This document shows positions 1 through 16,867 of a stretch of DNA of 64,000 bases, piece by piece. This DNA comes from an uncultured Bacilli bacterium. Lineage in GTDB: Bacteria; Bacillota_I; Bacilli_A; RF39; UBA660. A model generated the notes under the pieces. The model was not told the DNA's origin. It was given only the letters and a program-made list of their open reading frames with translations, and searched no databases. Positions within the stretch are counted from its first letter, which is position 1. Each line of letters begins with the position of its first letter. The stretch covers positions 476 to 64,475 of the forward strand of contig CATBQD010000009.1 in assembly GCA_949505625.1 (NCBI GenBank), written 5' to 3'. The translations under genes were made by a program, and so were the position numbers.

Positions 1-3000
1 ATTAATGCATCTTATAATTATTGGGGCTCGGAAAAGGGGCCATGGTTCAAGAATCCATATACTGGTTCCTATGAAGGCGGAACATATACAGTAAGTGATA
101 ATATTCAATTTTATCCATATAATACAACATTTATTAAAAACAGCGAAAACTCATTAGAATTAATTAAGACAATTGTTTATGATGCACCTCATTTTGGAAA
201 AGTAGGAGTTAATTCTTTTAACGGAAACTATAGTACTAAACATACAGACTTTGAAGTTTCTAATGGATTAAGTTTTACTAGAACTTACAATTCTAAAAAT
301 ACAAAAGAAAGTATATTAGGTACTGGTTGGTCATTTAGTTATGATTCTTATATTGAAAAGCATCCATATGGAGATAATTCTTATATTGTTCATTTACCAG
401 ATAGTTCTGTCAATGTCTTTATGAAACAAGAAGAAAATTATATTTCATTAAATAGTAGAAATACATTTGAAATTGTTGATGAAAAATATATCATAACAAC
501 AAAAGAACAAACAATTTATACTTATAATACAAATGGAAAACTAGAAAGTATTACAGATAAGTATGGTAATAAAACAACATTAACTTATACCAATAATTTA
601 TTGACATCTATTACAAGTAATCATAGAATTTATACATTAGAATATCAAAACAATTTACTTTCTAAAATAACTGACCCGATAGGAAGAACAGTTCGTTATA
701 GTTATTCAAATGGTCAACTTACAAAAGTAACAAATACAAATAGTATTGAGACCATTTATACTTATAATGATTCAAAACAATTGGTTGGAATAAAAGAAAA
801 TAACAATGTGATGTTAACTCTAGAATATATTACAGAAGGAATTTATAAAGATTATATTTCTAAAGTAACCAATGAAAAAGGATTAATTACAACATATACT
901 TATGATAGTGGTTCTAATATGACAACAGAAACGGACTCAAATGGAAGAATTACAAAAAAATATTACGATAGAGATGGATATGTTTATAAAGAGATTAATC
1001 CAAATGGGAATACAAAAACAATCGCTTATCAATTAGAAAATAGTGCGAATAAGTATGGTGAAATTGCTTTTGTTATTGACTTTAATTCAGCTAAAACCGC
1101 CTATACAAGAGATGATAAAGGTAATATTATAAAAATAACAAATCCAGATTCTAGCTTTAAACAGTATACTTACAATTCTAAAAATCAAGTTATAAAAGAA
1201 ATTGATGAAGAAGGAAATATTACAGAATATATTTATGATACAGATGGAGTTACTTTATTAAAACAAGTAAAACCTTTAGATGGAAAAACAGCATATACAG
1301 AAGAAGCAGATCAAAATAATTTTGAAATTATCACTTATACTTATTATGATTCAAAAGAAGTAAACAATATCAAAGGTTTAATGAAAACAAAAACAGATGA
1401 AAAAGGATTAACAACATATACTTATAATAACTATGGTGATGTTATTTCTATTACAAATGGAAACAATGAAAAAACTGTTTATTCAAAAAATAAATTAGGT
1501 TGGGTTTTAACAGAACAAATTAATGATGGTTATATTACGGAATATGAATATGATAATAACGGAAATACAACAAGTATTAAAAAAGATTCTAACTTGGTTT
1601 CTAAAGTAGAATATAATTATCAAAATAAACCAGTTAAAGTATTTGATGGAAATTGTAAAGAAAAGACTGTTTTTACACCTCTTACGTCTGGACTTAATTG
1701 GAACTCTAATCATAATTTATTAACAAATGTAGAATCAGAAACTATTTGTGATGCAATTATTTATGAATATGATATTTCAGGAAATAAAATTAAAGAAACA
1801 GATAGAGAAGGAAATACTATTACTTATAAGTATGACCAATATGGAAATGTAACAGAAAAAATTAGTCCAAATGAAAGTAGTTATTTATATGAATACGATA
1901 GTTTAAATCGATTAATTAAAACTTCTTTTAAGGACGGAGAAAATATAACTTTATTAGAAGAAAAATCTTATACGATAGCTTCTACTTCTACAACTACAAC
2001 AAAAACATATACAAATGATACAGAATTTAAAACAACTGTTGAAAGCTATAACAATAGAAATTGGAAATCTATAGAGAAACTTGAAACGAATCAAGCAACG
2101 ATTAATTATTATAAAAATGGTCAAATATATTATACAGTAGATAGAAATGGTGGATATACTTATTACTATTACAATAAAGCAAATCGATTAAGTAAAAAAT
2201 GTATTCAAGCCGATAGTTATTATATTTGTACACTATATACTTATGATAATAGTGGTAGATTGATAGAAGAAAAATTAGGAAAAAATAAAGTTTCTTATAA
2301 TGGTACTCCATCTAGTTATATTGTTACAACTTATCAATATAATGACATAGGACAAGTCATTAAAAAAATAACTTCAAGTGGAGAAGAAATAGAATATACT
2401 TATGATATTTATGAAAATGTCATCCAAGAAAAAACAAAAATAAGTGAAGACAAATATCAAACGAAAACATATGAATATAATTATTTAAATAAAGTAACAA
2501 AAGAAAATCTAGAAGGAATTATAACAACATATGAATATGATGGTGTTGGAAATATTATTAAAAAAACAACTGGTGAAAATGTAGTTACAAAATATGAATA
2601 TAATAAAAACTATCAAGTGACTAAAACAATATTGGATAATATTACTCAAGAAGAAAAAATGTATGATAACATGGGTAATATCATTATAAAAACAGATTCA
2701 AATGGTAATGCAACCAATTATATTTATGATAAAAGAAATAATGTGATTAAAGAAACAAATGCAAGAAATTTAGTAATTATTTATTCTTATGATTACAATA
2801 ATCGTTTAATAGAAACAAAAGATGCTAAAAATAATGTTATTCATTATGTATATGATAAATTTGATAATGTAATTTCTAAAACAACGAATGATACCATTAC
2901 TTATCAATATACTTATGATAAGAATAACAATGTTTTAAAAGAAATTGACCCATTAGGAAATACAACAACATATGCTTATGATAAAACCAATAAAGTAGCA

Positions 3001-6000
3001 AGAGTTACTGATAAATTAGGAAATTATAAGACATATGCTTACAATGTTTTACTGAATGTAGTAACCGAAAGAAATGAAAAAGGTATTTATATATATTATA
3101 CATATGATGATAGAGGTAATTGTATTGAAAAGAAATTAGGTTCCACTATCATTGAACAAAATGAATATGATTTGATGAATAACTTAGTGAAAAAAACAGA
3201 CGCTAATAAGAATGTAATGACATATGAATATAATGTTTTAAATCAATTGATAAAGAAGACAAATCCATTAGGTTATATAGAAGAATATGAATATGATAAA
3301 AATGGCAATTTAATTAAAATGAAAGATTATCAAAAAGAAATATTGTATTCTTATGATAATAGAGGAAATTTATTAAAAACGGTAGAACAAACATTAGATG
3401 GAAAAGAGAAAATAGAAACATCTAAAGTATATGATAATAATAACAATGTGATTAAAGAAATAGATGGAAATGGCAATATAACAACTTATACTTATGATGG
3501 CTTAAATAATGTTATTAAAATGAAAAATCCATTGAATCAAGAAACATTATATGAATATGATAATAACAATAACTTAGTGAAAGAAACAAACTATTTAGGA
3601 GATTCTAAAACTTATATTTATGATTCTTTTGATCGATTAATTGAAAAGAAAAATGAATTAGGAGAAACGATTGAAAAATTAGAATATGATTTCAATGGTA
3701 GACAAGTTAAAAGTATAGATGGATTAGGTCATACGACTACATTTGTTTATGATAAATTAGATAGAGTGATAGAAAAAATAGATTCATTAAATAGAAGTGA
3801 AAAAACAACTTATGATGCATTAGGAAATGTATTGACAAAAACAGATGCCAATGGAAATATTACAAAATATGTATATAACGACTTTAATAAAGTAACAAAG
3901 GTAACCAATGCATTAAATGAAAGTACTATCTATACATATGACAATAATAGTAATCTATTATCAGTAACAGATGGAAATAGTAAGAAAATAATTTATACTT
4001 ATAATGCTTTAAATTTAGAACTAACAGAAAAAGATGCATTAGGATTTATTGAAACAAAAGAATATAATTCAAATGGAATTTTAAAGAAAAAAACAACCAA
4101 AAATGGTTCTGAAATTAATTATACTTATGATATTCATAACAGATTGATTAAAGAAAATGATATTACTTACAAATATGATAATAATGATAATTTGTTAGAA
4201 ATTAAGGAAAATGAAAATGTAATTACTAGAGCTTATGATCAGTTAAATCGAGTAACAAAGAAAACAGAAAATAATCTTACAACAACATTTACTTATTCTG
4301 ATTATAGTGAAAAAACAGTTGATCCAAAAGGAAATGAAACAGTAAAAAACTATGATAAAGTAGGAAGATTAAAAGAAGTAGTTGGAGAAGCAGTTTATAC
4401 TTACAACTTAGATGGAACTGTTAAAAAAGTAACTTATCAAAATGGTTCAACTGAAGAATATAGTTATAAAGATGATAAGTCATTAGATACTTTAGTAAAT
4501 ACTTATCATGAGAAAGAAGAAACTTATCGTTATAGTTATGACAATAATAAAAATATCATTTCAAAATATGAAAATGGAAAAGAAACGAGTTATACTTATG
4601 ATGCATTAAACCGATTAAAAACAATTAGTGAATTCAGTTATAACGAAATAGAAAATGAAGAATTAGAAAAAGTAGAAACACTACTTACTACATATCTTTA
4701 TGATAAAGCAGGAAATAGAACCAAAGAAATAACCAGTAATATTACAAAAGAATATACTTATGATTCTAATAATAGACTTACAAAAATAATTGAAAAAGAA
4801 GATAATATAATTACAAAAACAACTATCTATACTTATGATAGTAATGGAAATCAGTTAACAGAAACCGTGAATAATGAAGTAAAAGAAACAAGTACTTATA
4901 ATGAAAGAAATGAGTTAGTAAAGGTAGTTACAGATAAAGAAACTATATATACTTATAATCCAGAAGGAAAACGAATTCAAAAACAGCAAGATAATAAAGT
5001 GATTAAATTTGTTTATGAAGGATTAGATGTTATATTAGAGTTAGATGAAAATGATAATGAGTTATCACATAATACATATGGATTAGCTTTAATATCAAGA
5101 GAGAACTCTAGTAAAGGATATTATTTATATAATGGTCATGGAGATACAGTAAGTATTGTAAATGAAGAAAATAATTTATTAAATAGCTATACATATGATG
5201 AATGGGGAGTTATAATAGAAAGTAATGGAGAGTTTGATAATCCATATAGATATGCAGGATATTATTATGATTTAGAAACAGATAATTATTATTTATTAAG
5301 TAGATATTATAATCCAGAGATAGGAAGATTTATAAGTGAAGATACCTATAGAGGAGATTATAATGACCCACTTAGTTTAAATAGATATGTATATGTAATA
5401 AACAATCCATTAATTTATATTGATCCAGATGGGTATTGGCCTAAATGGTTAGATGATTTTGGAAATTGGATAGGAAAGCGTGGGAAAGCTGTAGGAGAAG
5501 CAGCATATGAGTTTGTAGTTGATACAGGAAAAGGAACGTTAGATTTATTAGGAACAGTAAGTGGATATGTTATATCAGAAGCTGGAAAGTTTACAAATGG
5601 CTTGGCTTATGATATGGGAATAATAACAGATTATAATTATGCAGATGCTCAAAAACTTTATGGGAATTTGCATGATGTAACGAGTATGAAATTAGCCCAG
5701 ATGCCAGAAAATATAATAACAGGAATACAACAGAATTTTACTACAACATTTAATTATGATAATTTTATAAATTATTTAACAACAGATAATTATAATGATA
5801 TAAAAAATTATTCAAAATCAGTAATACAAACAGGAGTAACATTATATGGAGGATATAAGACAGCAAAAGGAATAAATAATTTAGCAAATGTAGTAAGTAA
5901 TGTAAGTATAACAACAAAACAAATACCAATAGGAAGTGTTATAAATAATAATGGTACATTATCATTAACAACAGCAACAGTACCAACTATAACGGGTATT

Positions 6001-6396
6001 AATGTAGCAACATTAAATCAAGCAATTATAAATGGAAGTATAGGAATAGCATCTATATCTACTAATGGAAATTATAATAAAAATAAACATCCTGATCCTT
6101 ACAAAAAATTCGATTTAAATAATCCAGAAAGCTTTAGAGGCGCAAAATTAGAAGATGTAGAAAATTTTATGGATGAGCATTTAAAAGATAAGACTTTAGG
6201 AAAAGGTAAACATCCATTTGAGAAAGATGTTTTGGGAGATGGAAATGGTGTGCGATATTATACTAAGAGTGGTCAAAATTTTGAATTAAACTATGGTTAT
6301 GATAAAACAATTTATGGCGGAGGAGATGGAATACATCAGGGACCATATTTGAAGACTACAGTTGGTTCAAAAGTGGTACATATTCCATTAAAATAG
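1..6396 (+). CDS. Rhs/YD-repeat polymorphic toxin, 5'-truncated by the window edge. Reading frame 1 is open from base 1, and the ORF track's Met at 421 is internal. It comprises the RHS core plus a pretoxin region and C-terminal toxin tip CT1.
   Basis: Translation from base 1 has no stop and contains an N-terminal-region motif of Rhs/teneurin proteins (SFTRTYNS...GTGWSFSYD). There are dozens of YD repeats (YxYDxxGN). The RHS core ends with the conserved NPLIYIDPDGYWP motif (DPxG boundary) at ~5400, followed by ~320 aa of non-repeat sequence. Confidence 0.85.
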   Translation: MNASYNYWGSEKGPWFKNPYTGSYEGGTYTVSDNIQFYPYNTTFIKNSENSLELIKTIVYDAPHFGKVGVNSFNGNYSTKHTDFEVSNGLSFTRTYNSKNTKESILGTGWSFSYDSYIEKHPYGDNSYIVHLPDSSVNVFMKQEENYISLNSRNTFEIVDEKYIITTKEQTIYTYNTNGKLESITDKYGNKTTLTYTNNLLTSITSNHRIYTLEYQNNLLSKITDPIGRTVRYSYSNGQLTKVTNTNSIETIYTYNDSKQLVGIKENNNVMLTLEYITEGIYKDYISKVTNEKGLITTYTYDSGSNMTTETDSNGRITKKYYDRDGYVYKEINPNGNTKTIAYQLENSANKYGEIAFVIDFNSAKTAYTRDDKGNIIKITNPDSSFKQYTYNSKNQVIKEIDEEGNITEYIYDTDGVTLLKQVKPLDGKTAYTEEADQNNFEIITYTYYDSKEVNNIKGLMKTKTDEKGLTTYTYNNYGDVISITNGNNEKTVYSKNKLGWVLTEQINDGYITEYEYDNNGNTTSIKKDSNLVSKVEYNYQNKPVKVFDGNCKEKTVFTPLTSGLNWNSNHNLLTNVESETICDAIIYEYDISGNKIKETDREGNTITYKYDQYGNVTEKISPNESSYLYEYDSLNRLIKTSFKDGENITLLEEKSYTIASTSTTTTKTYTNDTEFKTTVESYNNRNWKSIEKLETNQATINYYKNGQIYYTVDRNGGYTYYYYNKANRLSKKCIQADSYYICTLYTYDNSGRLIEEKLGKNKVSYNGTPSSYIVTTYQYNDIGQVIKKITSSGEEIEYTYDIYENVIQEKTKISEDKYQTKTYEYNYLNKVTKENLEGIITTYEYDGVGNIIKKTTGENVVTKYEYNKNYQVTKTILDNITQEEKMYDNMGNIIIKTDSNGNATNYIYDKRNNVIKETNARNLVIIYSYDYNNRLIETKDAKNNVIHYVYDKFDNVISKTTNDTITYQYTYDKNNNVLKEIDPLGNTTTYAYDKTNKVARVTDKLGNYKTYAYNVLLNVVTERNEKGIYIYYTYDDRGNCIEKKLGSTIIEQNEYDLMNNLVKKTDANKNVMTYEYNVLNQLIKKTNPLGYIEEYEYDKNGNLIKMKDYQKEILYSYDNRGNLLKTVEQTLDGKEKIETSKVYDNNNNVIKEIDGNGNITTYTYDGLNNVIKMKNPLNQETLYEYDNNNNLVKETNYLGDSKTYIYDSFDRLIEKKNELGETIEKLEYDFNGRQVKSIDGLGHTTTFVYDKLDRVIEKIDSLNRSEKTTYDALGNVLTKTDANGNITKYVYNDFNKVTKVTNALNESTIYTYDNNSNLLSVTDGNSKKIIYTYNALNLELTEKDALGFIETKEYNSNGILKKKTTKNGSEINYTYDIHNRLIKENDITYKYDNNDNLLEIKENENVITRAYDQLNRVTKKTENNLTTTFTYSDYSEKTVDPKGNETVKNYDKVGRLKEVVGEAVYTYNLDGTVKKVTYQNGSTEEYSYKDDKSLDTLVNTYHEKEETYRYSYDNNKNIISKYENGKETSYTYDALNRLKTISEFSYNEIENEELEKVETLLTTYLYDKAGNRTKEITSNITKEYTYDSNNRLTKIIEKEDNIITKTTIYTYDSNGNQLTETVNNEVKETSTYNERNELVKVVTDKETIYTYNPEGKRIQKQQDNKVIKFVYEGLDVILELDENDNELSHNTYGLALISRENSSKGYYLYNGHGDTVSIVNEENNLLNSYTYDEWGVIIESNGEFDNPYRYAGYYYDLETDNYYLLSRYYNPEIGRFISEDTYRGDYNDPLSLNRYVYVINNPLIYIDPDGYWPKWLDDFGNWIGKRGKAVGEAAYEFVVDTGKGTLDLLGTVSGYVISEAGKFTNGLAYDMGIITDYNYADAQKLYGNLHDVTSMKLAQMPENIITGIQQNFTTTFNYDNFINYLTTDNYNDIKNYSKSVIQTGVTLYGGYKTAKGINNLANVVSNVSITTKQIPIGSVINNNGTLSLTTATVPTITGINVATLNQAIINGSIGIASISTNGNYNKNKHPDPYKKFDLNNPESFRGAKLEDVENFMDEHLKDKTLGKGKHPFEKDVLGDGNGVRYYTKSGQNFELNYGYDKTIYGGGDGIHQGPYLKTTVGSKVVHIPLK

Positions 6397-6409
6397 AAAG
6401 AGGTTCAGT

Positions 6410-6808
6410 ATGAAAGAAAAAGACTTATTATCTTTTTTAGGAGATATAGTAGAACAGGATAGTGATTTAGAAACTTTGAAATCTAGACATACTATACACA
6501 ATTACGGTAAGTGTAGTTTAAATATGTTAAAAAGGATTATTATCTATGGATTAGAACACCATATATTAGAAGTATCAAAATATGTGCGCTCAGAAAAAAG
6601 ATATATTAATTTAGAACTAATGGAAAGTAAAAAAATAATTGAAAATGATAATTATTGGGAAAATGGCGAAAATGAAGTATATTATGTCACCTTTATAGAT
6701 ATTCCACACTATTTCTTTATTATATTTGGTCCATATGGTGTAACTGGAGAGCATGCTTTTGAAGGAGCGAAAGTTCCAGATGAATTTACGCAATTTATAA
6801 TTGAGTAA
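6410..6808 (+). CDS. Putative immunity protein cognate to the Rhs CT1 toxin tip
   Basis: A small ORF lies 13 bp downstream of the rhs stop with an RBS (AAAGAGG) 7 nt upstream of the ATG. This is the canonical position of rhsI immunity genes. There is no recognisable family. Confidence 0.5.
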   Translation: MKEKDLLSFLGDIVEQDSDLETLKSRHTIHNYGKCSLNMLKRIIIYGLEHHILEVSKYVRSEKRYINLELMESKKIIENDNYWENGENEVYYVTFIDIPHYFFIIFGPYGVTGEHAFEGAKVPDEFTQFIIE

Positions 6809-6825
6809 AAATATGTTTTAACTAA

Positions 6826-6857
6826 GCCAATCAAGTGATTGGCTTTCTCTATCTTTT
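6826..6857 (+). terminator. Rho-independent terminator after the imm1 gene
   Basis: Perfect 8-bp inverted repeat GCCAATCA/TGATTGGC (6826..6843) followed by TTTCTCTATCTTTT. Confidence 0.5.
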
Positions 6858-6938
6858 ATGTACATTAAAACTGTCCAAGTAAATAAATTACTCAAAGTTA
6901 AGCAGCTGACTTAGTAATCGGCATAAAAACAATAAAAA
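6851..6938. repeat. Cassette-boundary repeat, copy A (full length)
   Basis: ATCTTTTATGTACATTAAAACTGTCCAAGTAAATAAATTACTCAAAGTTAAGCAGCTGACTTAGTAATCGGCATAAAAACAATAAAAAG. Related copies occur at 9938..10027 (full), 11237..11263 (left half only) and 14231..14280 (right half only). Confidence 0.8.
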
Positions 6939-6956
6939 GAAACCAAGCTAAGTTAT

Positions 6957-9511
6957 AAACAGATGCCAATGGAAATATTACAAAATATGTATATAACGAC
7001 TTTAATAAAGTAACAAAGGTAACCAATGCATTAAATGAAAGTACTATCTATACATATGACAATAATAGTAATCTATTATCAGTAACAGATGGAAATAGTA
7101 AGAAAATAATTTATACTTATAATGCTTTAAATTTAGAACTAACAGAAAAAGATGCATTAGGATTTATTGAAACAAAAGAATATAATTCAAATGGAATTTT
7201 AAAGAAAAAAACAACCAAAAATGGTTCTGAAATTAATTATACTTATGATATTCATAACAGATTGATTAAAGAAAATGATATTACTTACAAATATGATAAT
7301 AATGATAATTTGTTAGAAATTAAGGAAAATGAAAATGTAATTACTAGAGCTTATGATCAGTTAAATCGAGTAACAAAGAAAACAGAAAATAATCTTACAA
7401 CAACATTTACTTATTCTGATTATAGTGAAAAAACAGTTGATCCAAAAGGAAATGAAACAGTAAAAAACTATGATAAAGTAGGAAGATTAAAAGAAGTAGT
7501 TGGAGAAGCAGTTTATACTTACAACTTAGATGGAACTGTTAAAAAAGTAACTTATCAAAATGGTTCAACTGAAGAATATAGTTATAAAGATGATAAGTCA
7601 TTAGATACTTTAGTAAATACTTATCATGAGAAAGAAGAAACTTATCGTTATAGTTATGACAATAATAAAAATATCATTTCAAAATATGAAAATGGAAAAG
7701 AAACGAGTTATACTTATGATGCATTAAACCGATTAAAAACAATTAGTGAATTCAGTTATAACGAAATAGAAAATGAAGAATTAGAAAAAGTAGAAACACT
7801 ACTTACTACATATCTTTATGATAAAGCAGGAAATAGAACCAAAGAAATAACCAGTAATATTACAAAAGAATATACTTATGATTCTAATAATAGACTTACA
7901 AAAATAATTGAAAAAGAAGATAATATAATTACAAAAACAACTATCTATACTTATGATAGTAATGGAAATCAGTTAACAGAAACCGTGAATAATGAAGTAA
8001 AAGAAACAAGTACTTATAATGAAAGAAATGAGTTAGTAAAGGTAGTTACAGATAAAGAAACTATATATACTTATAATCCAGAAGGAAAACGAATTCAAAA
8101 ACAGCAAGATAATAAAGTGATTAAATTTGTTTATGAAGGATTAGATGTTATATTAGAGTTAGATGAAAATGATAATGAGTTATCACATAATACATATGGA
8201 TTAGCTTTAATATCAAGAGAGAACTCTAGTAAAGGATATTATTTATATAATGGTCATGGAGATACAGTAAGTATTGTAAATGAAGAAAATAATTTATTAA
8301 ATAGCTATACATATGATGAATGGGGAGTTATAATAGAAAGTAATGGAGAGTTTGATAATCCATATAGATATGCAGGATATTATTATGATTTAGAAACAGA
8401 TAATTATTATTTATTAAGTAGATATTATAATCCAGAGATAGGAAGATTTATAAGTGAAGATACCTATAGAGGAGATTATAATGACCCACTTAGTTTAAAT
8501 AGATATGTATATGTAATAAACAATCCATTAATTTATATTGACCCAGATGGGCATTTACCTAAGTGGTTAAAAAGTATTGTAGATGATGTATCTAATTTAG
8601 GAAAGACATTAGGAGCTACAATACATGGAGGAGCACAAGCTTTAGGAGATGCGATTATAGGACTTGGACAAATGACAATTGATGGTGGAACAATATTCTT
8701 ATATGGAAGTGCAGCATTTGGAAATGAAATCTATCATAATTTAGGATTATTTAGTGATGAAGATTATGAAAGAAATTTAGACTATTATACAGATAAGTTA
8801 ATAGATAGTGGAAGTAGATTAAATCCAATAAATGCAATAAATGGAATAAAAGAAAACTTTGCAACAACATTTAATTTAGATAACATAGAGAGATTTGTAG
8901 ATAAAGATACTTCATATTTTGATAAGGTTGCATATGCAAATGAAGCAACAAAGACAGCAATGACAGTATATGGAACATATAAAGTAGGAAAAGGTATTTA
9001 TAATAAAGTTACACAGCCATCATCATTTGGAGAAATGAGTAAAGCAGATGCATCAGGTTATAAAAATTATTGGAATCAAGTAAAGCAAGGCTTGACAGTA
9101 GAACAAAGATATAATTTACAAAAATTTGGGACAATGAATACTTTTGCAGATTATATGACTTTAGATGATGCAGCAAATTATAATCAGCATTGGGAACAGG
9201 TAAAACAAGGTTTAACTGCAGAGCAAAGATATAATTACGCTAGGTATGGTAATTTTGAAGGTGTGCCGATTCAAAATAATCCACTTACTGGCTATACTAG
9301 ACATGGATTAAATTCTGCGATAAGTCATGATGGAGTAGGAATTCGTCCAAGTAGTATATTAGATACAGTAAAAAATCCATTAAAGATAAGACCAGGCACA
9401 GATCATACAGTAAGATATATTGGAAAAGAAGGAGTAGTAAATTTAAACTATGATGGCAAATTAACTACTACTTGGTCAAAAGGAAGCGCATATTGGAGGA
9501 TGAAAAAATGA
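6957..9511 (+). CDS. Orphan Rhs C-terminal module (promoterless) carrying an alternative toxin tip CT2
   Basis: 6957..8552 is a near-identical duplicate of rhs 3839..5434 (constant offset of 3118 bp). Only one mismatch was noticed, GATCCAGAT versus GACCCAGAT. It is in frame and open from the TAA at 6954. There is no ATG start or RBS (the ORF track uses TTG at 7262). After the shared DPDG motif the sequence diverges completely (HLPKWLKS... versus YWPKWLDD...) to a different ~320-aa C-terminus. Confidence 0.8.
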
Positions 9512-9777
9512 GTAATAAATTAACAAACGCGGATATAGAGGAAATTAATAATTGTTTTTCACAGTTTCATAGAAATGATTCTTTTTTGCCAATAACATTA
9601 GAAAAAATAGTAAATAATAAAGAATTGTTAGAAGAATGTTTATTTTGCGTGGATGATATGTATCATCATGCTGGAGTAAAAGAGGATTGGGAACCTAATG
9701 ATTATGGTCTTTTGCTATATCACATAGAGGAGAAAATAAATAATCGCATCTATTTTTTGCAAGATAATGATAGTTAA
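9508..9777 (+). CDS. Putative immunity protein cognate to orphan toxin tip CT2
   Basis: The ATG at 9508 is preceded by GGAGGA and overlaps the orphan rhs stop codon (GGAGGATGAAAAAATG). A small acidic protein in the immunity position. The ORF-track start at 9472 lies inside rhs and is unlikely. Confidence 0.5.
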   Translation: MSNKLTNADIEEINNCFSQFHRNDSFLPITLEKIVNNKELLEECLFCVDDMYHHAGVKEDWEPNDYGLLLYHIEEKINNRIYFLQDNDS

Positions 9778-9794
9778 GAAAGGTAATAACTAAG

Positions 9795-9831
9795 GGGTGT
9801 CATGAAATAGCAGTGTGACACCTATTTTTTA
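9795..9831 (+). terminator. Rho-independent terminator after imm2
   Basis: GGTGTCA..TGACACC stem followed by TATTTTTTATTTT. Confidence 0.5.
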
Positions 9832-9937
9832 TTTTATTGCAATTTTTAAATTTAATAATTCATTATGAAATATAGGTTTTAATAAATAGATATAAAAAGA
9901 CTATATGAAATTGTTTTATTTCATGACAGCCAATTTC

Positions 9938-10027
9938 GCCATCTTTTATGTACGATAAAAATTGTCTGAGTAAATCAATTAGTCAAATTTAAATAACTAA
10001 CTTAGTAATTAGTATAGAAGCAAGAGA
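9938..10027. repeat. Cassette-boundary repeat, copy B (full length, ~75% identical to copy A)
   Basis: ATCTTTTATGTACGATAAAAATTGTCTGAGTAAATCAATTAGTCAAATTTAAATAACTAACTTAGTAATTAGTATAGAAG aligns along its length with copy A. Confidence 0.7.
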
Positions 10028-10159
10028 TAAGGAACAGAAAATGATAAAGTTATAGTTTTCACTTTCTTTTCACAAATGATTGATTTTAATGTATGTATAT
10101 GTTACTATATGGTTAATAGTAAAGGATAGTGCTAAAAGTATTATTAGGGTGTATAGTAT

Positions 10160-11167
10160 ATGAAAAAATTAAGTGTATGGTTTCGTGAAGTTATGGGCCT
10201 ACTTTTTTGGGGCTTTTTGCTTGTAATTGCTATTTCTGGATTGTTTACAGGATCAAATTCAGTTATAAAAAATTTAACATCTGATTGTGTGATTTATACA
10301 GTAGAAGATCTGGAGAAATGTTATAATGAAAATCAATATGTTGAAGTTCATACAATGCAAGTATTAGATGGTGGTTATGAGCATATTGAAGATAACAATG
10401 GAACTGGAAAATTTGTAATTATAAATCTAGATGGACATGGAATGATTTCTTTATTAAAAGAATCATTAGCAGACTCATTATTAACAAATGAAATAGAACA
10501 GGTTGTTATAAAAGGAAAAATTGAAAAATTCAGTCAATCTAATAAAACAGTGAGTGATAATATAGAAAAACAATATAAAGAAGCATTTAAAGATGTGCAT
10601 ACTGAAGAAGAACTTGCAACTTTGTTTACTGCCATTCAATTTAATCAATATGATGCTGATAAGGGAACTTTAATTTTTCTTTTGGTCTTTTATATTGTTG
10701 CTATAATATGGTTTTTGTCAAGAATCATTCGTAAAATTCCTGGTGTCATAAAGCCAGAACAATATCATTTTAATAATAGTGTTTCTATTAGAGAAAAACC
10801 AGATTTTAATAAAGTTTTAGAAGAATTTGACTCAAAAAAATATTATTTTCAGTATAAAAATATCTATATTACAGAACACTATTTGATTAAAAAGAGAGGA
10901 AAACGATTACATGTTACTTCTAAGGATTGCATTGCTTGGATTTATGAAAAAAAGGTAACCGTTAATTTTATAACTTATTCTCACTATATAGTGGTTCATA
11001 CATTTGATAGAAAAAGAGCTTTACGTATTACAGTCAATGAAAAAAATAAAACATTTATTATGGAAGCATTAAGAAAAGAGTGTCCAAACGCAACTTTTGG
11101 ATACAACTATTCTCTTGCAAGTTTATGGAGAAAAAATCCAGAGCGTTTTATAAAAAATAACGAATAA
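10160..11167 (+). CDS. Membrane protein with 2 TM segments (N-terminal and central) and a C-terminal soluble domain, function unknown
   Basis: ORF with hydrophobic helices LLFWGFLLVIAISGLF and LIFLLVFYIVAIIWFL. The C-terminal region (YKNIYITEHYLIKKRGKRLHV...) is loosely reminiscent of a bacterial PH-like fold, which is weak evidence. It lies between two copies of the cassette repeat. Confidence 0.5.
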   Translation: MKKLSVWFREVMGLLFWGFLLVIAISGLFTGSNSVIKNLTSDCVIYTVEDLEKCYNENQYVEVHTMQVLDGGYEHIEDNNGTGKFVIINLDGHGMISLLKESLADSLLTNEIEQVVIKGKIEKFSQSNKTVSDNIEKQYKEAFKDVHTEEELATLFTAIQFNQYDADKGTLIFLLVFYIVAIIWFLSRIIRKIPGVIKPEQYHFNNSVSIREKPDFNKVLEEFDSKKYYFQYKNIYITEHYLIKKRGKRLHVTSKDCIAWIYEKKVTVNFITYSHYIVVHTFDRKRALRITVNEKNKTFIMEALRKECPNATFGYNYSLASLWRKNPERFIKNNE

Positions 11168-11236
11168 AAATGTATCAGTTTGCATTTAATTAAATTTTAC
11201 TTTGTTCATTTAAAGATAACTATTTATAATATTTTC

Positions 11237-11263
11237 CCATCGTTTATGCACATTAAAAATATG
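11237..11263. repeat. Cassette-boundary repeat, copy C (left half only)
   Basis: CCATCGTTTATGCACATTAAAAATATG matches the left ~25 bp of copies A and B, then diverges. Confidence 0.6.
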
Positions 11264-11334
11264 AAAATTCTGTTTATATTGATTAAACTATGGTAAAATA
11301 ATGTTAACTTATATATTTAGCAGTGAGGAATATT

Positions 11335-14247
11335 ATGAGAGAAAAATCAAATAAAAACCAAAAGAAATATGACGGTATTTTTTTAGAAAAACCAATTAGT
11401 AATGCTAATGAAGATGTTTTTGGCATTTCTCCCTATGCAGAACAATTGTATACTGCAATTGAAAATGAGGCTAAATTTATAGCAATTGATGGTCAACATG
11501 GGAGTGGAAAATCTAGTTTAATTAATATGGTAAATGATATAATAAAGAAGCCGAAAAAAAAGCATTTTTGGAATCGAAAACAAAAGAATTTTTTTGTCAA
11601 TATTAACTTTTTAAATATTAATGAATCTAGTATTGAAAGTAATGAAATTGTTTCTTCTAACGAAATCGGCGAAAATTGTAAAGAAAAACAGACAAATCAA
11701 AGTATTATTAATAAATATCATAGATATTTTGTGAACCAAGTTGCAAATGATTTATATAGAAATCCATATGATATTGAAAAATTATTTTATAATAATTTTA
11801 TTTCCTATTCTACAGTTTCTTTACAAAATCATACAAAATGGAAAATGATTATTGATAAACTATTATTAATTTTATTTTCATATGCTGTAGTATATTTATC
11901 ATCTTTTAGTGCATTAGAGGACACAAAAGTTTTCAAACCAGTGAAAGAATTGGCTACTATAATATTTTGGATTTCCTTATTTGTCATATTAATCCTCCTA
12001 GTTCTTTATGGATATGGATTTTATAAACCAGAAAAATCTGAGCAAAGTCCAATGTTAGATGTTGATAAATGTAGAAATAATCTATGCAAAATATTATTTA
12101 ATGTAGTTCCTAAGAAGAGTAATGTATATTTTATTATTGATGATCTAGATAGAGTAGATAAGACCTTGCAGTTACAAATTATTTCTCTATTATATAATGA
12201 ATATTATCCATTAGATAATCTTATTAAAAATATTAATCTAAAATTTATTTTTATGATAGATATTCATAAATTAAATGAGAATGATGTTGATGCATATAAA
12301 TTATTTGATTATATTATTAATGTCTCTAATAATCAACCTATAGTTTTAAGAAATTACATTGAAAAAATGATTGAGGAAGATGCAATTTTAAGATTAATTT
12401 TTAAAGATATAAAATCAAGAGATTATATTATTGGCTTAATTGCAAATCATTATTCAAAAATAAGAAATATCAAACATTTATTTAACCGAATTATTATGAA
12501 ATATTTGTATTTAAAAAATCAAGGGTATCAAGATATTAATAGAGAGCAATTAATAATAATAAGTTTACTAGCTGGTTTAAATGAAACTGATAAATTGAAT
12601 GAAGCATTAGATATAGCAGTTAATAAATCCATAAATCAAATATCTGATGATGGAAATGATAAAGGTAATAAAGATGATAAAAAGATGTTTACAATTATTA
12701 AAGAAGTGCTTCGTAAAAACTTAATAGATAATAATTTCTATATTTATCTATATAATTTTATAGATGTAAATGATTTATTAACTTCTGATGAACAATTGAT
12801 TTATAAAACTGCAAATGATAATTATTCTTCAACAGAAGAAGATTGGACACATGTATATGAAATACTGGAAGGTGACGGTGTATCATTTTCCAAAATATAT
12901 AATCAGATTTATAAATATTTAAGTAATAACGGAAAACTGTTAATGTTGGGAAGCCCTAAATTTTATTACTATGTTAAAATGAATTTCTCACTAAAAGATA
13001 TTGATATAAAAGATGTATATAAAAATCAATTTATACATTTATCTTTTTCAAACATTTGTGGAACGGATGGAATAATTTCTCTACCTTCTGAAGAAACTGA
13101 GACTTTAAATAATTATTATACTGAATATGTAAAAAATGTTAATAATGAAGAAGCAAAAGAAAGATTCATAGTAGAATTAAAAGAATTTATAACCAGTATG
13201 AAGTGGAATATAAAGTATTTTAAATTATCAAATTTTCTAGATTCAGTTTCATTAGAAAAAGATCTCTTTGATTTGTTATATAGTCAAAAATATAATGAAG
13301 TTCCAGTTATCTTTGAAATGATTTTAAATGGTTGTTTGAAGTGGGAAAATATAAAAGCATTTATTGATGATGATATGATAAATGACATTCTAAAAATAGA
13401 AGATATAGAATCAAGAAAGAAGTTAGAGGAAAGTATATTAAAAGTTGATATTCCATTCAATCACATATTATCTATTATTTGTAATGAAAAACAAAAATTA
13501 ACTGATATTGATTCTTATCTAGAAAAGATAAATGAAATGGAGAATAAAACAATTTCATTAGAAAAATTGGCAAAGATTATTGAGCTTTATGGATATAAAG
13601 AAATTTTAGATAAGCATATCATAGCTCTTTTAGATAATGATTCTAAAAAAGTAGTTAATTTCTTCAAGCAATATGAATTGAATTTATCAAAAAAAATATT
13701 AAACCATTTAAATTCAATTCGATATGTATACTCTTATAATAAGTTTTATAATGATTTATTTATAAAAGAAAAATATTATAAATTGTATATTTATTCCAAA
13801 GCAATAGAGAAAAAGTCTTTTGAAGTAGAAAGCAAACTGAAAACTAGGAAAGAATATATAAAATCCTTGATGGATGTGTATATAAGAATGGATGAAGGAT
13901 TTAAAAGGTATCATTTTTCGGATAATTTTAAAATCACTATTATTGACAATTTCAAATTAGATGATTTTGAAATTACAGAAGATAATTTTTGGAAAATATT
14001 AATATTAATTCCCAAAATTAATGACTATAGTAAAGCACAGAAATTTTTTGAAAGAATAAGAGAGTTGAATCTATTAAAAGCCTTTTCTAAATATTGTAGT
14101 AATGAATGTAAAGAATTAGAGTTTATAAAAAACTTGAGGATGTATGCAGAAGAATTTGGAGACAAATCTGATAAATCAATATTAACTAGAGCCAAAAGAA
14201 AATTGGAAAACGAAATGGAAAAATCAAAATCAATTACTCAAAGTTAA
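11335..14247 (+). CDS. KAP-family P-loop NTPase with 2 TM helices inserted in the NTPase domain
   Basis: Walker A IDGQHGSGKSSL. Two hydrophobic helices (LLLILFSYAVVYLSSF and IIFWISLFVILILLVLYGYGF) lie between Walker A and Walker B. The Walker B is VYFIIDDLDR, the hhhhDDLDR motif that is the KAP hallmark. The likely start is the ATG at 11335 after GTGAGGAA (the track's GTG at 11323 is the RBS itself). An extended -10 element, TGGTAAAAT, lies at 11291. The last 7 codons and the stop are encoded by repeat copy D. Confidence 0.75.
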   Translation: MREKSNKNQKKYDGIFLEKPISNANEDVFGISPYAEQLYTAIENEAKFIAIDGQHGSGKSSLINMVNDIIKKPKKKHFWNRKQKNFFVNINFLNINESSIESNEIVSSNEIGENCKEKQTNQSIINKYHRYFVNQVANDLYRNPYDIEKLFYNNFISYSTVSLQNHTKWKMIIDKLLLILFSYAVVYLSSFSALEDTKVFKPVKELATIIFWISLFVILILLVLYGYGFYKPEKSEQSPMLDVDKCRNNLCKILFNVVPKKSNVYFIIDDLDRVDKTLQLQIISLLYNEYYPLDNLIKNINLKFIFMIDIHKLNENDVDAYKLFDYIINVSNNQPIVLRNYIEKMIEEDAILRLIFKDIKSRDYIIGLIANHYSKIRNIKHLFNRIIMKYLYLKNQGYQDINREQLIIISLLAGLNETDKLNEALDIAVNKSINQISDDGNDKGNKDDKKMFTIIKEVLRKNLIDNNFYIYLYNFIDVNDLLTSDEQLIYKTANDNYSSTEEDWTHVYEILEGDGVSFSKIYNQIYKYLSNNGKLLMLGSPKFYYYVKMNFSLKDIDIKDVYKNQFIHLSFSNICGTDGIISLPSEETETLNNYYTEYVKNVNNEEAKERFIVELKEFITSMKWNIKYFKLSNFLDSVSLEKDLFDLLYSQKYNEVPVIFEMILNGCLKWENIKAFIDDDMINDILKIEDIESRKKLEESILKVDIPFNHILSIICNEKQKLTDIDSYLEKINEMENKTISLEKLAKIIELYGYKEILDKHIIALLDNDSKKVVNFFKQYELNLSKKILNHLNSIRYVYSYNKFYNDLFIKEKYYKLYIYSKAIEKKSFEVESKLKTRKEYIKSLMDVYIRMDEGFKRYHFSDNFKITIIDNFKLDDFEITEDNFWKILILIPKINDYSKAQKFFERIRELNLLKAFSKYCSNECKELEFIKNLRMYAEEFGDKSDKSILTRAKRKLENEMEKSKSITQS

Positions 14248-14280
14248 ACAACTGACTTAGTAATCAGCATAAAAGCATAA
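14231..14280. repeat. Cassette-boundary repeat, copy D (right half only; ~90% identical to the right half of copy A)
   Basis: AATTACTCAAAGTTAAACAACTGACTTAGTAATCAGCATAAAAGCATAAG versus copy A AATTACTCAAAGTTAAGCAGCTGACTTAGTAATCGGCATAAAAACAATAA. Confidence 0.75.
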
Positions 14281-14285
14281 GAAAA

Positions 14286-14306
14286 AAGGAAGAAGACTTC
14301 CTTTTT
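14286..14306. terminator. Bidirectional hairpin terminator shared by the KAP NTPase (+) and the yjcZ-like gene (-)
   Basis: GGAAG AAGA CTTCC followed by TTTTTT, and preceded by an A-run on the other strand. Confidence 0.45.
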
Positions 14307-14482
14307 TAGTTATTAAATGCTCTTGCGCCAATAACGATTACTAATAAGATAAATAGGACTAAGATGATAGCAGCACCATATCCAGCACCACCACCGTATC
14401 CGTAGCCTCCACCATAAGATGGATACCCAGAATTGCAGCAACAGTTATTACCATAACCGCTGTAACCACCGTAATAATACAT
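14306..14482 (-). CDS. YjcZ-family-like small Gly/Tyr/Cys-rich sporulation peptide with a C-terminal membrane anchor
   Basis: MYYYGGYSGYGNNCCCNSGYPSYGGGYGYGGGAGYGAAIILVLFILLVIVIGA. Glycine-rich peptides with this hydrophobic tail (xxILVLFILLIIVG) are the Bacillus YjcZ sporulation family. The true start is likely the ATG at 14482, 6 nt after GGGAGGG. The ORF-track start at 14497 lies inside the RBS. Confidence 0.5.
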   Translation of the reverse strand: MYYYGGYSGYGNNCCCNSGYPSYGGGYGYGGGAGYGAAIILVLFILLVIVIGARAFNN

Positions 14483-14590
14483 TATAATCCCTCCCATCTA
14501 ATCTAATATATTGTATTAAACTGTCAAAATAATGTTTATGAAATTCACCTATTTTTGAAAAATTGATTGTGAGATAATCAAATATATGTT

Positions 14591-15790
14591 ATGATTAAAT
14601 ATAGAGTAGGTGAGGATATGATCAAGCAAATAAGACGTAACTTACATGATTTAGATAAACCATTACTCTTTATTACTGTAGCATTCTTTTTGTTTGGATT
14701 ATTCAATATCGTAACTGCCTCTAGTAGAGAAGCTGTTGTTAGATATGATGCTTCTATGTATCATTATTTCTTTCAGCAATTAAAAATGCTTGCTATTGGT
14801 TTTGTAGGATTTTTAATTATCATTAATGTTGATAGTAAAAACTATCCAAAATGGGCATTTTTCTTATTTATAGGAGTCTTATTTTTATTAATTTATTTAT
14901 CTTTAGCTGGAACAGAACATAAAGGCGCTAAAAACTGGGTTAATATTATGGGATTTTCCTTTCAACCTAGTGAATTTGCGAAACCCATTATTATCGTTTC
15001 TTTAGCTTGTTTATTTGACTTATTTGGTAAAAAATTAAAAAATAAACGAATTGCTCATTATGATATGATATCTGTTATTTTGATTGTAGGATTATTAATT
15101 CCTGTTATTGTCTTTTTGCAGAAAGACTTTGGAACCATGTTAATCTTAATGACGATTTTCTTTGTAATGTTTTTTGCAAGCCCCATTTTAAGAATAGAAA
15201 AACTAAAAACTTTTTTCTTATTAATTGGACTTGGTATTGTAGCATGTGCTATGATGATTATGGTAAAAGGATATATTTTATCTCCAGCTCAAATGGCTAG
15301 ATTTGATTTCTTTAATCCTTGTTCAAAATATGAAGAAGGAGGATATCAAGTCTGTAATGGCTTTATCGCTTTTAACGATGGAGGACTATGGGGGTTAGGA
15401 ATTGGAAAAAGTAAACAAAAATATTCATATATACCAGAACCACATACTGATAGTATCTTTGCAATTATAGGAGAAGAATGGGGGTTTTTAAAAAGCACAT
15501 TGATTTTTATTGTTTATGCATATATCTTAAAACGGATCTTAGATCTATCATCCAAAGCGAATACAATAAGAGGAAAATTTATTTGCTTAGGCGTTCCTAC
15601 TTATATATTTTCCCATGTTTTAATTAATTTAGGAGGACTATTTGGAGTGATCCCATTAACTGGAGTTCCACTTCCGTTCTTATCATATGGAGGATCATTT
15701 GCCATTTCTTTAATAGGATCATTAAGTCTGGTACAAAGAATTCATATAGAAACGAAAAATCAAAAAATTAATATAGGAGGAAGAATATGA
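14591..15790 (+). CDS. SEDS-family peptidoglycan glycosyltransferase (FtsW/RodA/SpoVE)
   Basis: Multi-TM protein with the conserved SEDS loop GIGKSKQKYSYIPEPHTDSIFAIIGEEWGF. An alternative start lies at 14618, just after GGTGAGGA. Confidence 0.8.
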   Translation: MIKYRVGEDMIKQIRRNLHDLDKPLLFITVAFFLFGLFNIVTASSREAVVRYDASMYHYFFQQLKMLAIGFVGFLIIINVDSKNYPKWAFFLFIGVLFLLIYLSLAGTEHKGAKNWVNIMGFSFQPSEFAKPIIIVSLACLFDLFGKKLKNKRIAHYDMISVILIVGLLIPVIVFLQKDFGTMLILMTIFFVMFFASPILRIEKLKTFFLLIGLGIVACAMMIMVKGYILSPAQMARFDFFNPCSKYEEGGYQVCNGFIAFNDGGLWGLGIGKSKQKYSYIPEPHTDSIFAIIGEEWGFLKSTLIFIVYAYILKRILDLSSKANTIRGKFICLGVPTYIFSHVLINLGGLFGVIPLTGVPLPFLSYGGSFAISLIGSLSLVQRIHIETKNQKINIGGRI

Positions 15791-16158
15791 AAAAAAATGG
15801 ATTTACGTTAGCTGAACTTTTAGGAGTAGTTGTTATTTTAGGACTTTTACTTCTTCTTGTATTCCCATCTGTCGTAAAAGAATTAAAAGAAGGAGAATCA
15901 AATATTGAAGGAGCTGTAGAACAAATTATCAAAAATGGAGCTTCAAACTATATTGAAAATAATAAAAGTATTTATCCATCAAATACAAATGCCACTTATT
16001 GTATTACTTTAAATACTTTAGTAAATGCAGGAGAAATCTCTAAAAGTTTACTCATTGATAAAAAAGGAAAGGCTTTGGATTTAGGAAAAAAAGTAGAAGT
16101 TCAGATTCAAAATGGTCAAAAAACTTATAAAATGAATGATCAATGTCAAAATAGTTAG
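15787..16158 (+). CDS. Type IV (pseudo)pilin, ComGC-like
   Basis: N-terminal class III signal MKKNGFTLAELLGVVVILGLL (G/FTLxE prepilin cleavage and methylation motif). Two Cys residues near the C-terminus. Its start overlaps the SEDS stop codon (ATGA). Confidence 0.75.
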   Translation: MKKNGFTLAELLGVVVILGLLLLLVFPSVVKELKEGESNIEGAVEQIIKNGASNYIENNKSIYPSNTNATYCITLNTLVNAGEISKSLLIDKKGKALDLGKKVEVQIQNGQKTYKMNDQCQNS

Positions 16159-16201
16159 GATTTTATAAAATAAATTTAGTATCATTTTATGAGGTGATAA
16201 A

Positions 16202-16867
16202 ATGATACTAAAAATAAGAAAAGAAAAAAAGGCGCTGCTGATTATAAGTATCATTCTTTTTTTATTTTTAATGAATTTTTTCTTTCATAGTGAAAAAGAA
16301 CAAATAATTGAAGAAGCTATTGTAGAAAAAGAAGAAATCTTTAAAAATAAAACGATACAAGTAGATATTAAAGGAGCAGTAAAAACTCCTGGAGTATATG
16401 AAATGGATACCAATTCTAGAGTACAAGATCTAATTTTAAAAAGCGGTGGATTATTAGAAAATGCTTATGTAAATACCATCAATTTAAGCAAAAAATTAGA
16501 AGATGAAATGGTTGTCATTATTTATACCAATGAAGAAATAAATACATTTTTAGAAGAAGAAACTAGAATAATGAAACAAGAAAATACTTGTGTTTGTCCA
16601 AAAGTAGAAAATAATGTTTGTATAAAAGAAGCTACTACAAATAAACCAACAGCGAACAAAGAAGATAATGCTACTAAGAAAGTCTCTTTAAATAATGGAA
16701 CTAAGGAAGACTTTGAAACCCTTTCTGGAATAGGAAGTTCAAAAGCAAACGCAATTATTGAATATCGAAATGAACATGGCAAATTTAATACTATTGAAGA
16801 AATAAAAAATGTAAGCGGAATAGGAGATGCAACTTTTGAAAAGATTAAAGAAAATCTTACACTCTAA
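16202..16867 (+). CDS. comEA: ComEA DNA receptor (SLBB + tandem helix-hairpin-helix)
   Basis: N-terminal TM, SLBB-like VDIKGAVKTPGVYEM...RVQDLILKSGG, and C-terminal HhH motifs EDFETLSGIGSSKANAIIEYRNEHGKFNTIEEIKNVSGIGDATFEKI. Confidence 0.85.
   Translation: MILKIRKEKKALLIISIILFLFLMNFFFHSEKEQIIEEAIVEKEEIFKNKTIQVDIKGAVKTPGVYEMDTNSRVQDLILKSGGLLENAYVNTINLSKKLEDEMVVIIYTNEEINTFLEEETRIMKQENTCVCPKVENNVCIKEATTNKPTANKEDNATKKVSLNNGTKEDFETLSGIGSSKANAIIEYRNEHGKFNTIEEIKNVSGIGDATFEKIKENLTL

Follow-up and report, generated by a model that had tools for sequence, protein, structure and literature searches.

A terminator-plus-boxes repeat unit at the cassette seams of an Rhs island in an uncultured Bacilli bacterium

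The Rhs island and its cassettes

The subject of this study is a short non-coding repeat found at the seams between gene cassettes in an Rhs toxin island of an uncultured Bacilli bacterium. The island lies in a 64,000-nt stretch of DNA (contig CATBQD010000009.1) that was analysed as a whole and is termed the window; labels such as L003, L013 or L036 denote contigs compared with it, and all sequences are from metagenome assemblies. From left to right the island consists of the main rhs gene, imm1, repeat copy A, an orphan rhs fragment, imm2, repeat copy B, a DUF6709 gene, repeat fragment C, a KAP NTPase gene, repeat fragment D and a bidirectional terminator, followed by a 58-amino-acid (aa) open reading frame (ORF) on the minus strand and by ftsW. 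The site that it occupies is between def and the small membrane gene beside ftsW.

The main rhs gene (positions 1..6396, plus strand, from the ORF list) is cut by the left edge of the window, and its toxin tip, CT1, is encoded at about 5424-6396. In the same-species contig L026 the protein is 2530 aa long and gives Pfam matches to DUF6531, TEN_YD-shell and RHS; full-length rhs with YD-repeat shell and core shows RHS_repeat, TEN_YD-shell and Rhs_assc_core matches. The imm1 gene (6410..6808, plus strand; 132 aa) starts 14 nt after the rhs stop, has no family match and is presumed, by position only, to be an immunity gene. The orphan rhs fragment (6957..9511, plus strand) is a copy of the core followed by a second toxin tip, CT2, with RHS and Rhs_assc_core matches, and imm2 (9508..9777, plus strand; 89 aa), placed by gene calls on same-species contigs, is the presumed CT2 immunity gene, again by its position. 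Pfam assigned only one family to immunity-like ORFs, Cys_rich_CPCC, and that to some of them. Positions 6957-8541 are a 1585-nt, 100% identical copy of 3839-5423; beyond this, identity falls to about 35%. The island displays the features of an orphan rhs array, i.e. a 5'-truncated fragment, a shared core, a different tip and an immunity ORF of its own.

Exact-protein look-ups of the KAP, DUF6709 and imm1 products returned a single layout, shared by all contigs of the window species, and no other arrangement. Of interest, in the same-species contig L003 the main rhs is joined directly to CT2, and CT1, imm1 and copy A are missing. This contig represents either a real orphan-activation variant or an assembly collapse of the 1585-nt perfect repeat.

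Two further cassettes are not of the rhs type. The DUF6709 gene (10160..11167, plus strand; 335 aa) is recognized by its Pfam match (PF20456, 2e-13). Upstream of it is a promoter-like segment (10056..10148, plus strand) delimited by alignment with L026 2130-2400; about 80 nt of this region are mostly identical to the same-species def-rhs intergenic promoter region (L026 ~2200-2290). The upstream region of a DUF6709 homologue in L117 differs from that of the window. The KAP cassette (11271..14247, plus strand), supported by homology to L013 and by a PifA match, is composed of a promoter region (11271-11334) and the gene itself (11335-14247, with an alternative GTG start at 11323). The gene is the one ORF between C and D, as the first-pass annotation of this DNA had stated. 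Its product is predicted to be a KAP family P-loop NTPase, an identification that holds on several grounds. The N-terminus matches PADLOC PifA (2e-9), and homologues with 35-59% identity carry PF07693; the window protein itself scored too low for the Pfam scan to report it. Between Walker A (GSGKSS) and Walker B (IIDDLDR) there are two hydrophobic segments.

Anatomy of the repeat unit

The first-pass annotation had described a ~90-bp element in four copies, two of them full, one a left part and one a right part. Pattern and profile matches agree with the four positions, but the unit is longer than described, at ~135 nt from a terminator hairpin to an A-rich tail. Copy A (6818..6955, plus strand) is a full unit, supported by alignment, a terminator scan and an nhmmer match of 5e-28 to a profile built from full copies. 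Copy B (9921..10043, plus strand; nhmmer 3e-22) is of full length, with its hairpin decayed to a remnant and a right half closest to the copy in L038. Fragment D (14227..14285, plus strand) consists of spacer, box 2 and tail; it is matched by the profile at 14228-14285 (2e-9), is also seen in alignment to L013 and is 90% identical to copy A over 50 nt, close to the figure first noted. Beyond A, B and D, the profile found no match in the whole window. Fragment C (11238..11262, plus strand) represents ~25 nt of the left part without hairpin and is below the length reach of the profile. It was detected by a 21-nt left-half pattern that, with up to three mismatches, matches only at 6850, 9940 and 11238 in the window (0.03 expected by chance); C has two mismatches in these 21 nt and 20/24 identity to the left part of B. 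A 23-nt right-half pattern matches at 6906 and 14252 (0.01 expected by chance), copy B being more diverged. All window copies are on the gene strand. By an identity matrix and by direct reading, the closest match of C is the left part of B, and that of D is copy A.

The elements of the unit are, in order, the terminator hairpin, a T/C-rich run, box 1 (ACTGTCCAAGTAAA), an AT-rich spacer, box 2 (TTAGTAATCAGCATA) and the A-rich tail. In copy A the terminator scan places the stem-loop (AAGCCAATC-N4-GATTGGCTT) at 6824-6845, directly 3' of imm1, and the A-rich tail extends to the junction with orphan rhs at 6956/6957. The 5' part of the unit fits the description of an intrinsic terminator, with a tail that is T/C-rich and not a pure T run, and is thus a predicted terminator. 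Between lineages, covariation is found in the hairpin: three of the eight stem pairs are compensatory, and 98.6% of cells are paired. Since these pairs have changed on both sides yet stay paired, the hairpin is likely to be a functional terminator.

The core of the unit, with the hairpin excluded, presents a different picture. Its consensus fold has six weak pairs (-2.2 kcal/mol) and zero covarying pairs, and folds of single copies are not consistently better than those of shuffled sequences; in some copies there is merely a weak AT hairpin. An Rfam search (E<=1) of window positions 6000-16000 gave no match, and BLAST of the unit against phage and plasmid collections gave none either.

Several minor features were noted during inspection of the copies. 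Copy B is hybrid-like, with a left part resembling A and a right part resembling the L038 copy; this is suggestive, but the sequences are too short to serve as evidence. A likeness of the left part of copy A to the XerD arm of dif (TTATGT...AAA) was dropped, as it is absent from the other copies in the alignment. An 18-codon ORF in copy A was dropped as well, as it is not conserved in B or L036.

Distribution among related genomes

Is the unit a general intergenic repeat, or does it belong to the island? Syntenic relatives were fetched via FtsW from species-representative genomes and are metagenome-assembled genomes labelled uncultured Tenericutes or Bacilli; the profile was run against the 64-kb window and a total of 1.67 Mb of gathered sequence. 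It gave more than 30 matches, all on the gene strand and all at island seams, and the unit was absent from about 1.6 Mb of other sequence. In the window species, in L036, L037 and L038 and, in diverged form, in L116 the unit is present 3' of every rhs-CT/immunity cassette, which bears out the initial proposal that it is specific to cassette boundaries.

L036 to L038 are the closer relatives (FtsW 93-94% aa). L036 (FtsW 94% aa) carries rhs, an immunity gene, hairpin plus repeat, orphan rhs, an immunity gene, hairpin plus intact repeat, ~110 nt and the terminator, with neither DUF6709 nor KAP. L037 and L038 likewise have one intact terminal copy and lack both genes, so that the KAP-less terminal repeats anticipated from the window alone do exist. 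The ~110-nt segment between terminal repeat and bidirectional terminator (L036 9593-9700; L038 1005-1110) is missing from both the window and L037; a sequence similar to its first ~25 nt forms the tail of copy B. Empty states are present in L039, L040, L041 and L051, where def lies 85-170 nt from the small membrane gene and both island and repeat are absent. A solo state is seen in a distant species, L042 (FtsW 74%), in which def is followed by ~220 nt, a single repeat without hairpin and the terminator, and there is no rhs. The repeat thus belongs to the island, with which it appears and disappears, and not to intergenic DNA in general.

A search with the Rhs core led to L116, a more distant Rhs array (63% aa over 47% of the query). 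In it a diverged form of the unit recurs in at least five copies and separates at least five cassettes; the architecture is unchanged and boxes 1 and 2 are conserved, with a hairpin that differs in sequence. In order, there are the hairpin (GACCAGTC-N3/4-GACTGGTC), the T/C-rich run, CTACTAACTGTCCAAGTAAA, the AT spacer, TTAGTAATMAGCATARRA and the A-rich tail. These copies come after immunity genes and before 5'-truncated rhs fragments, and two small non-rhs genes are bracketed as well. Another Rhs array, L115, is without the unit, which is therefore restricted to certain lineages.

Short patterns were also searched in large collections. The strict 23-nt right-half pattern had no match in 185,579 species genomes, although it also missed true copies in relatives; it had none in metagenome contigs, nor did a 25-nt variant, and a 26-nt variant had none in viral contigs. 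Because the first pattern was too strict and missed the true copies in L036-L038, these zero counts say little beyond "not widespread".

A probable 3' end module of Rhs island cassettes

What, then, is the unit? The reading that is favoured here, with moderate confidence, is that it represents the non-coding 3' end module of the island's cassettes, which would be copied in tip displacement and reused as homology in recombination. The terminator hairpin would end the cassette transcript and be followed by a conserved spacer of ~100 nt that runs from box 1 to the A-rich tail. With each downstream tip displacement or segment duplication the module would be copied along with the cassette, which would account for its position after every cassette and its single orientation. 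Copies that are direct repeats of 60-135 nt by a fixed chromosomal flank would then offer portable homology for RecA-type events, e.g. cassette loss between copies, unequal exchange, and replacement or insertion of cassettes that arrive by transformation.

The anatomy and distribution of the unit, the covariation in its hairpin, the empty and solo states and the two copies around KAP in a relative were observed directly; that recombination uses the repeat is something we infer from patterns of several kinds. Between the window species and a second species that shares the non-rhs cassettes, DNA identity is 68.5% for DUF6709 and 71.6% for KAP, and that of the flanking repeat cores is 82-87%; the ftsW background between the window and the L036 group, 86-88%, is near the repeat-core identity. 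Diverged cargo between ordinarily diverged flanks constitutes a mosaic pattern, which offers circumstantial support. Junctions are imprecise, as orphan rhs starts 8-28 nt after box 2 at varied rhs positions and partial copies end variously, and this fits homology-facilitated or illegitimate joining. The 1585-nt perfect duplication, together with L003 (itself a possible assembly collapse), points to ongoing homologous exchange within the island. The competence genes (pilin-like, comEA and comEC) just downstream of it lend further circumstantial support. The earlier suggestion that the repeats are recombination hot spots is plausible in view of the mosaic patterns.

A number of points weigh against this interpretation. 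In the sequences compared, no recombination event was caught at the repeat itself, and the sole variant within the species, L003, concerns the duplicated rhs core and may reflect a collapsed assembly. Both boxes are kept where the hairpin and the Rhs core have diverged, which hints at a sequence-specific function beyond mere homology. Identity of the repeat to that of close relatives (80-88%) is not above the coding background, and so there is no signal of independent constraint or homogenization. As copies were sought in 1.67 Mb of sequence, further ones may exist at other loci. Lastly, the near-complementarity of fragments C and D would be a coincidence of two deletions; such a coincidence is made easier by the fact that almost all non-coding DNA here is repeat.

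Might the unit be kept mainly for gene expression, with any part in recombination being incidental? The terminator would insulate silent orphan toxins, and the two boxes would provide the immunity gene of the next cassette with a promoter, an operator or a signal for RNA processing. Orphan immunity genes generally require expression of their own, the hairpin with its compensatory changes sits directly 3' of immunity genes, and the boxes are conserved across lineages. Inspection of the alignment, however, revealed no convincing conserved sigma-70 -35/-10 pair across copies, and a promoter scan was at background. The lack of an Rfam match, the distinct upstream regions that KAP and DUF6709 have of their own and the tolerance of truncated copies also argue against expression as the main role. 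It is considered unlikely, though it is the strongest of the alternatives, and a mainly regulatory role is compatible with the 3' end module proposed above.

The KAP NTPase gene and the repeat sequences that flank it

The arrangement around the KAP gene invites another explanation. C covers the unit core up to about position 25, and D starts ~10-15 nt further on, so that the two are nearly complementary halves with ~10-15 nt of the unit absent between them, and exactly one gene separates them. The last seven codons of KAP and its TAA stop (14245-14247) are read from D. The first-pass annotation had described this arrangement and had offered, as one of two readings, that a gene was inserted into a repeat copy. 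Relatives that carry an intact terminal copy without KAP agree with such a history, and since the repeat takes up nearly all of the non-coding sequence that separates the last immunity gene from the terminator, any viable insertion there would hit a repeat.

The closest KAP homologue (59% aa) speaks for a different history. It is found in a second species, in L013 and the overlapping L117, where the order is a full repeat, a DUF6709 homologue (52% aa), ~500 nt, a partial repeat, the KAP promoter, KAP and a complete repeat. The copy upstream of KAP comprises the hairpin and the left part and extends some way into the right half. Downstream, KAP ends at a stop codon of its own, directly before a repeat that is complete but for its hairpin; the left part of the unit thus occurs twice around a single KAP gene. 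Homology between the window and L013 runs from 11271 to 14224 with 72% identity. Compared with L013, the window lacks ~37 nt at the end of KAP that correspond to the KAP stop and the left part of the downstream copy; because of this deletion KAP now terminates inside D. The upstream copy is also shorter in the window (25 nt, without hairpin) than in L013/L117.

The DUF6709-KAP pair with its bracketing copies is shared by both species and is therefore ancestral to both. To reach the L013 state from a bisected copy, two gains that match the repeat consensus are needed; in the reverse direction only deletions are required. The best interpretation of C and D is therefore that each is what remains of a separate copy, D having probably arisen by the ~37-nt deletion, and the resemblance of C to the left part of B and of D to A is a further point against a common origin as halves of one copy. 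The bisected copy is accordingly held to be improbable. In terms of the 3' end module, DUF6709 and the KAP NTPase would be non-toxin cargo captured into inter-cassette DNA in an ancestor shared with the second species, after which the copies flanking KAP would have eroded, the upstream one to 25 nt and the downstream one by loss of its left part together with the KAP stop.

Other observations concern KAP homologues themselves. DUF6709 and KAP are adjacent in two species (window 10160-14247; L117 318-3482) and could form a two-gene unit; more distant KAP homologues have no DUF6709 nearby, and their surroundings are unrelated and free of the repeat. In L014, L019 and L024 (e.g. L014 9383-16893), homologues with 46-47% identity are carried by a ~7-kb element together with an HTH gene, an AAA_25 gene and a gene for a large serine recombinase. 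CotZ-like fragments of 68 aa and 80 aa flank this element, which has the appearance of an intervening sequence that interrupts a spore-coat gene. In L025 (1-463) a KAP homologue (46% identity) lies 3' of a gene that ends like the C-terminus of a restriction-modification enzyme, a defence-type context without the repeat.

Site-specific recombination and transposition as less likely alternatives

Could the unit be an attachment site? A dedicated or host site-specific recombinase would then act on an integron-like array of toxin, immunity and defence cassettes. The unit is at the 3' end of every cassette, including the non-rhs ones, in direct orientation and in two diverged lineages; boxes 1 and 2 are kept as their surroundings drift, and a solo unit is present in the island-less genome L042. 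Yet no recombinase gene is present within 10 kb on either side of the island in the window species, where the flanks carry def, an arylsulfotransferase gene, ftsW and comEA/comEC, and there is none on L116. The core has neither an inverted repeat nor an attC-like structure, and an attC-like fold raised as a prospect in the first reading is not borne out by its weak, non-covarying consensus fold. Moreover, junction positions are heterogeneous where a fixed crossover would give uniform ones, and the cassettes start with 5'-truncated rhs fragments of arbitrary length. An attachment site is thus doubtful, somewhat more so than a bisected repeat copy. In a related version, a recombinase or nuclease with its gene elsewhere in the genome would act in trans by recognizing boxes 1 and 2, as part of a dedicated cassette-capture system. 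The chance of this is put slightly lower still. Were it true, toxin tips, immunity genes and anti-phage genes would be stacked at one chromosomal site by a functional analogue of the integron, unrelated to it in site structure.

The unit is short, non-coding, hairpin-containing and multi-copy, as would be expected of a dispersed intergenic repetitive extragenic palindrome (REP)-type repeat or of a miniature inverted repeat transposable element (MITE); in the latter case the two halves would be the ends of a mobile element, and A and B would derive from it by collapse. Either is highly improbable: terminal inverted repeats are absent from the ends of the KAP segment and of the unit, there is no target-site duplication, copies occur in a single orientation at island seams only and not dispersed through the 1.67 Mb, full copies exist in species without KAP, and the 23-nt pattern, with the misses already noted, was absent from the species genomes. 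The ubiquitous REP-like scatter that would have spoken against a link with cassettes was not seen in the 1.67 Mb, and the repeat is missing from the four island-less loci.

Comparison with known systems

The closest known system is that of the Rhs/CdiA orphan arrays, formed by "C-terminal displacement" (Poole et al. 2011, PMC3150448; Koskiniemi et al. 2014, PMC3967940). As in these, a full rhs gene is followed by a 5'-truncated fragment with another tip and its own immunity gene, and a long identical core, here 1585 nt, would let the orphan replace the active tip. The window island differs in that a shared ~135-nt non-coding module ends every cassette, that non-toxin genes (DUF6709 and the KAP NTPase) are interleaved and bounded by this module, and that the host is an uncultured low-GC member of the Bacilli/"Tenericutes" and not a proteobacterium.

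In type VI secretion system (T6SS) effector-immunity arrays of Vibrio cholerae, new modules insert successively and old immunity genes are pushed downstream; homology-facilitated illegitimate recombination after transformation has been proposed, and a short conserved downstream region is retained within the arrays (Kirchberger et al. 2017, PMC5361080). The window island matches this displacement model (PMC5361080). Toxin family and secretion route differ, however, and here a defined terminator-plus-boxes unit is present after every cassette and is kept in a second, diverged lineage.

Integron attC cassettes share with the island a repeated element at the 3' end of each cassette, direct orientation and cargo of unrelated functions. 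The island departs from integrons in that integrase and attI are lacking, the unit does not fold into an imperfect palindrome with extrahelical bases, and a fixed crossover point is absent. Silent-cassette systems offer another parallel. A Sma/Cla repeat is present downstream of the Neisseria pilE/pilS loci, and 17-bp repeats bound the Borrelia vls cassettes; there, as here, a short non-coding 3' sequence may be a second homology arm for conversion or exchange. Those systems, in contrast, vary surface antigens within a cell line at high frequency, and their sequences are unrelated to the unit.

The KAP gene can be compared with PifA-type KAP defence genes, to which it is linked by the match at its N-terminus, by PF07693 in its homologues and by the hydrophobic segments inside the NTPase domain; distant homologues ride a serine-recombinase element. 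It differs from them in being located in an Rhs array and not on a plasmid or prophage, and in having a C-terminus extended by 8 codons that the repeat supplies. Its defence role is putative, as judged from sequence.

The island adds a case from an uncultured Bacilli lineage to the polymorphic toxin loci already known to be built as orphan arrays. A new type of mobile element or of recombination system does not emerge from it. Two of its features are modestly interesting, namely the defined terminator-plus-boxes boundary module and the captured KAP NTPase/DUF6709 pair. The module provides a sequence-defined seam for the growth of polymorphic-toxin islands in uncultured gut Bacilli, and the pair suggests that such arrays can accept non-toxin cargo, in this case a PifA-like KAP NTPase and a DUF6709 protein, via the same boundary module. 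Loci of inter-bacterial warfare are thereby linked with candidate anti-phage defence genes. The conserved boxes can also be used as a handle for finding more arrays.

Chromosomal flank of the island

The right edge of the island is formed by the bidirectional terminator hairpin (14282..14307, no strand assigned), which was detected by the terminator scan and is kept in all related loci. The 58-aa Gly/Cys-rich membrane ORF that follows (14306..14482, minus strand) is the right chromosomal flank and shows 94-100% aa identity in all related species; its C-terminal part is hydrophobic (sequence MYYYGGYSGYGNNCCC...). The intergenic region between this ORF and ftsW is 96-99% identical among the closer relatives, above the ftsW coding DNA (85-88%). 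The ftsW/rodA-family gene (14591..15790, plus strand; Pfam PF01098) is the chromosomal flank that was used for synteny, and an exact-protein look-up of its product returned no record.

Beyond ftsW, positions 15787-18878 carry a pilin-like gene with an N-terminal methylation motif, comEA (SLBB and HHH) and a comEC-like gene. As these competence-type genes adjoin the island, their presence suggests that the lineage may be naturally transformable.

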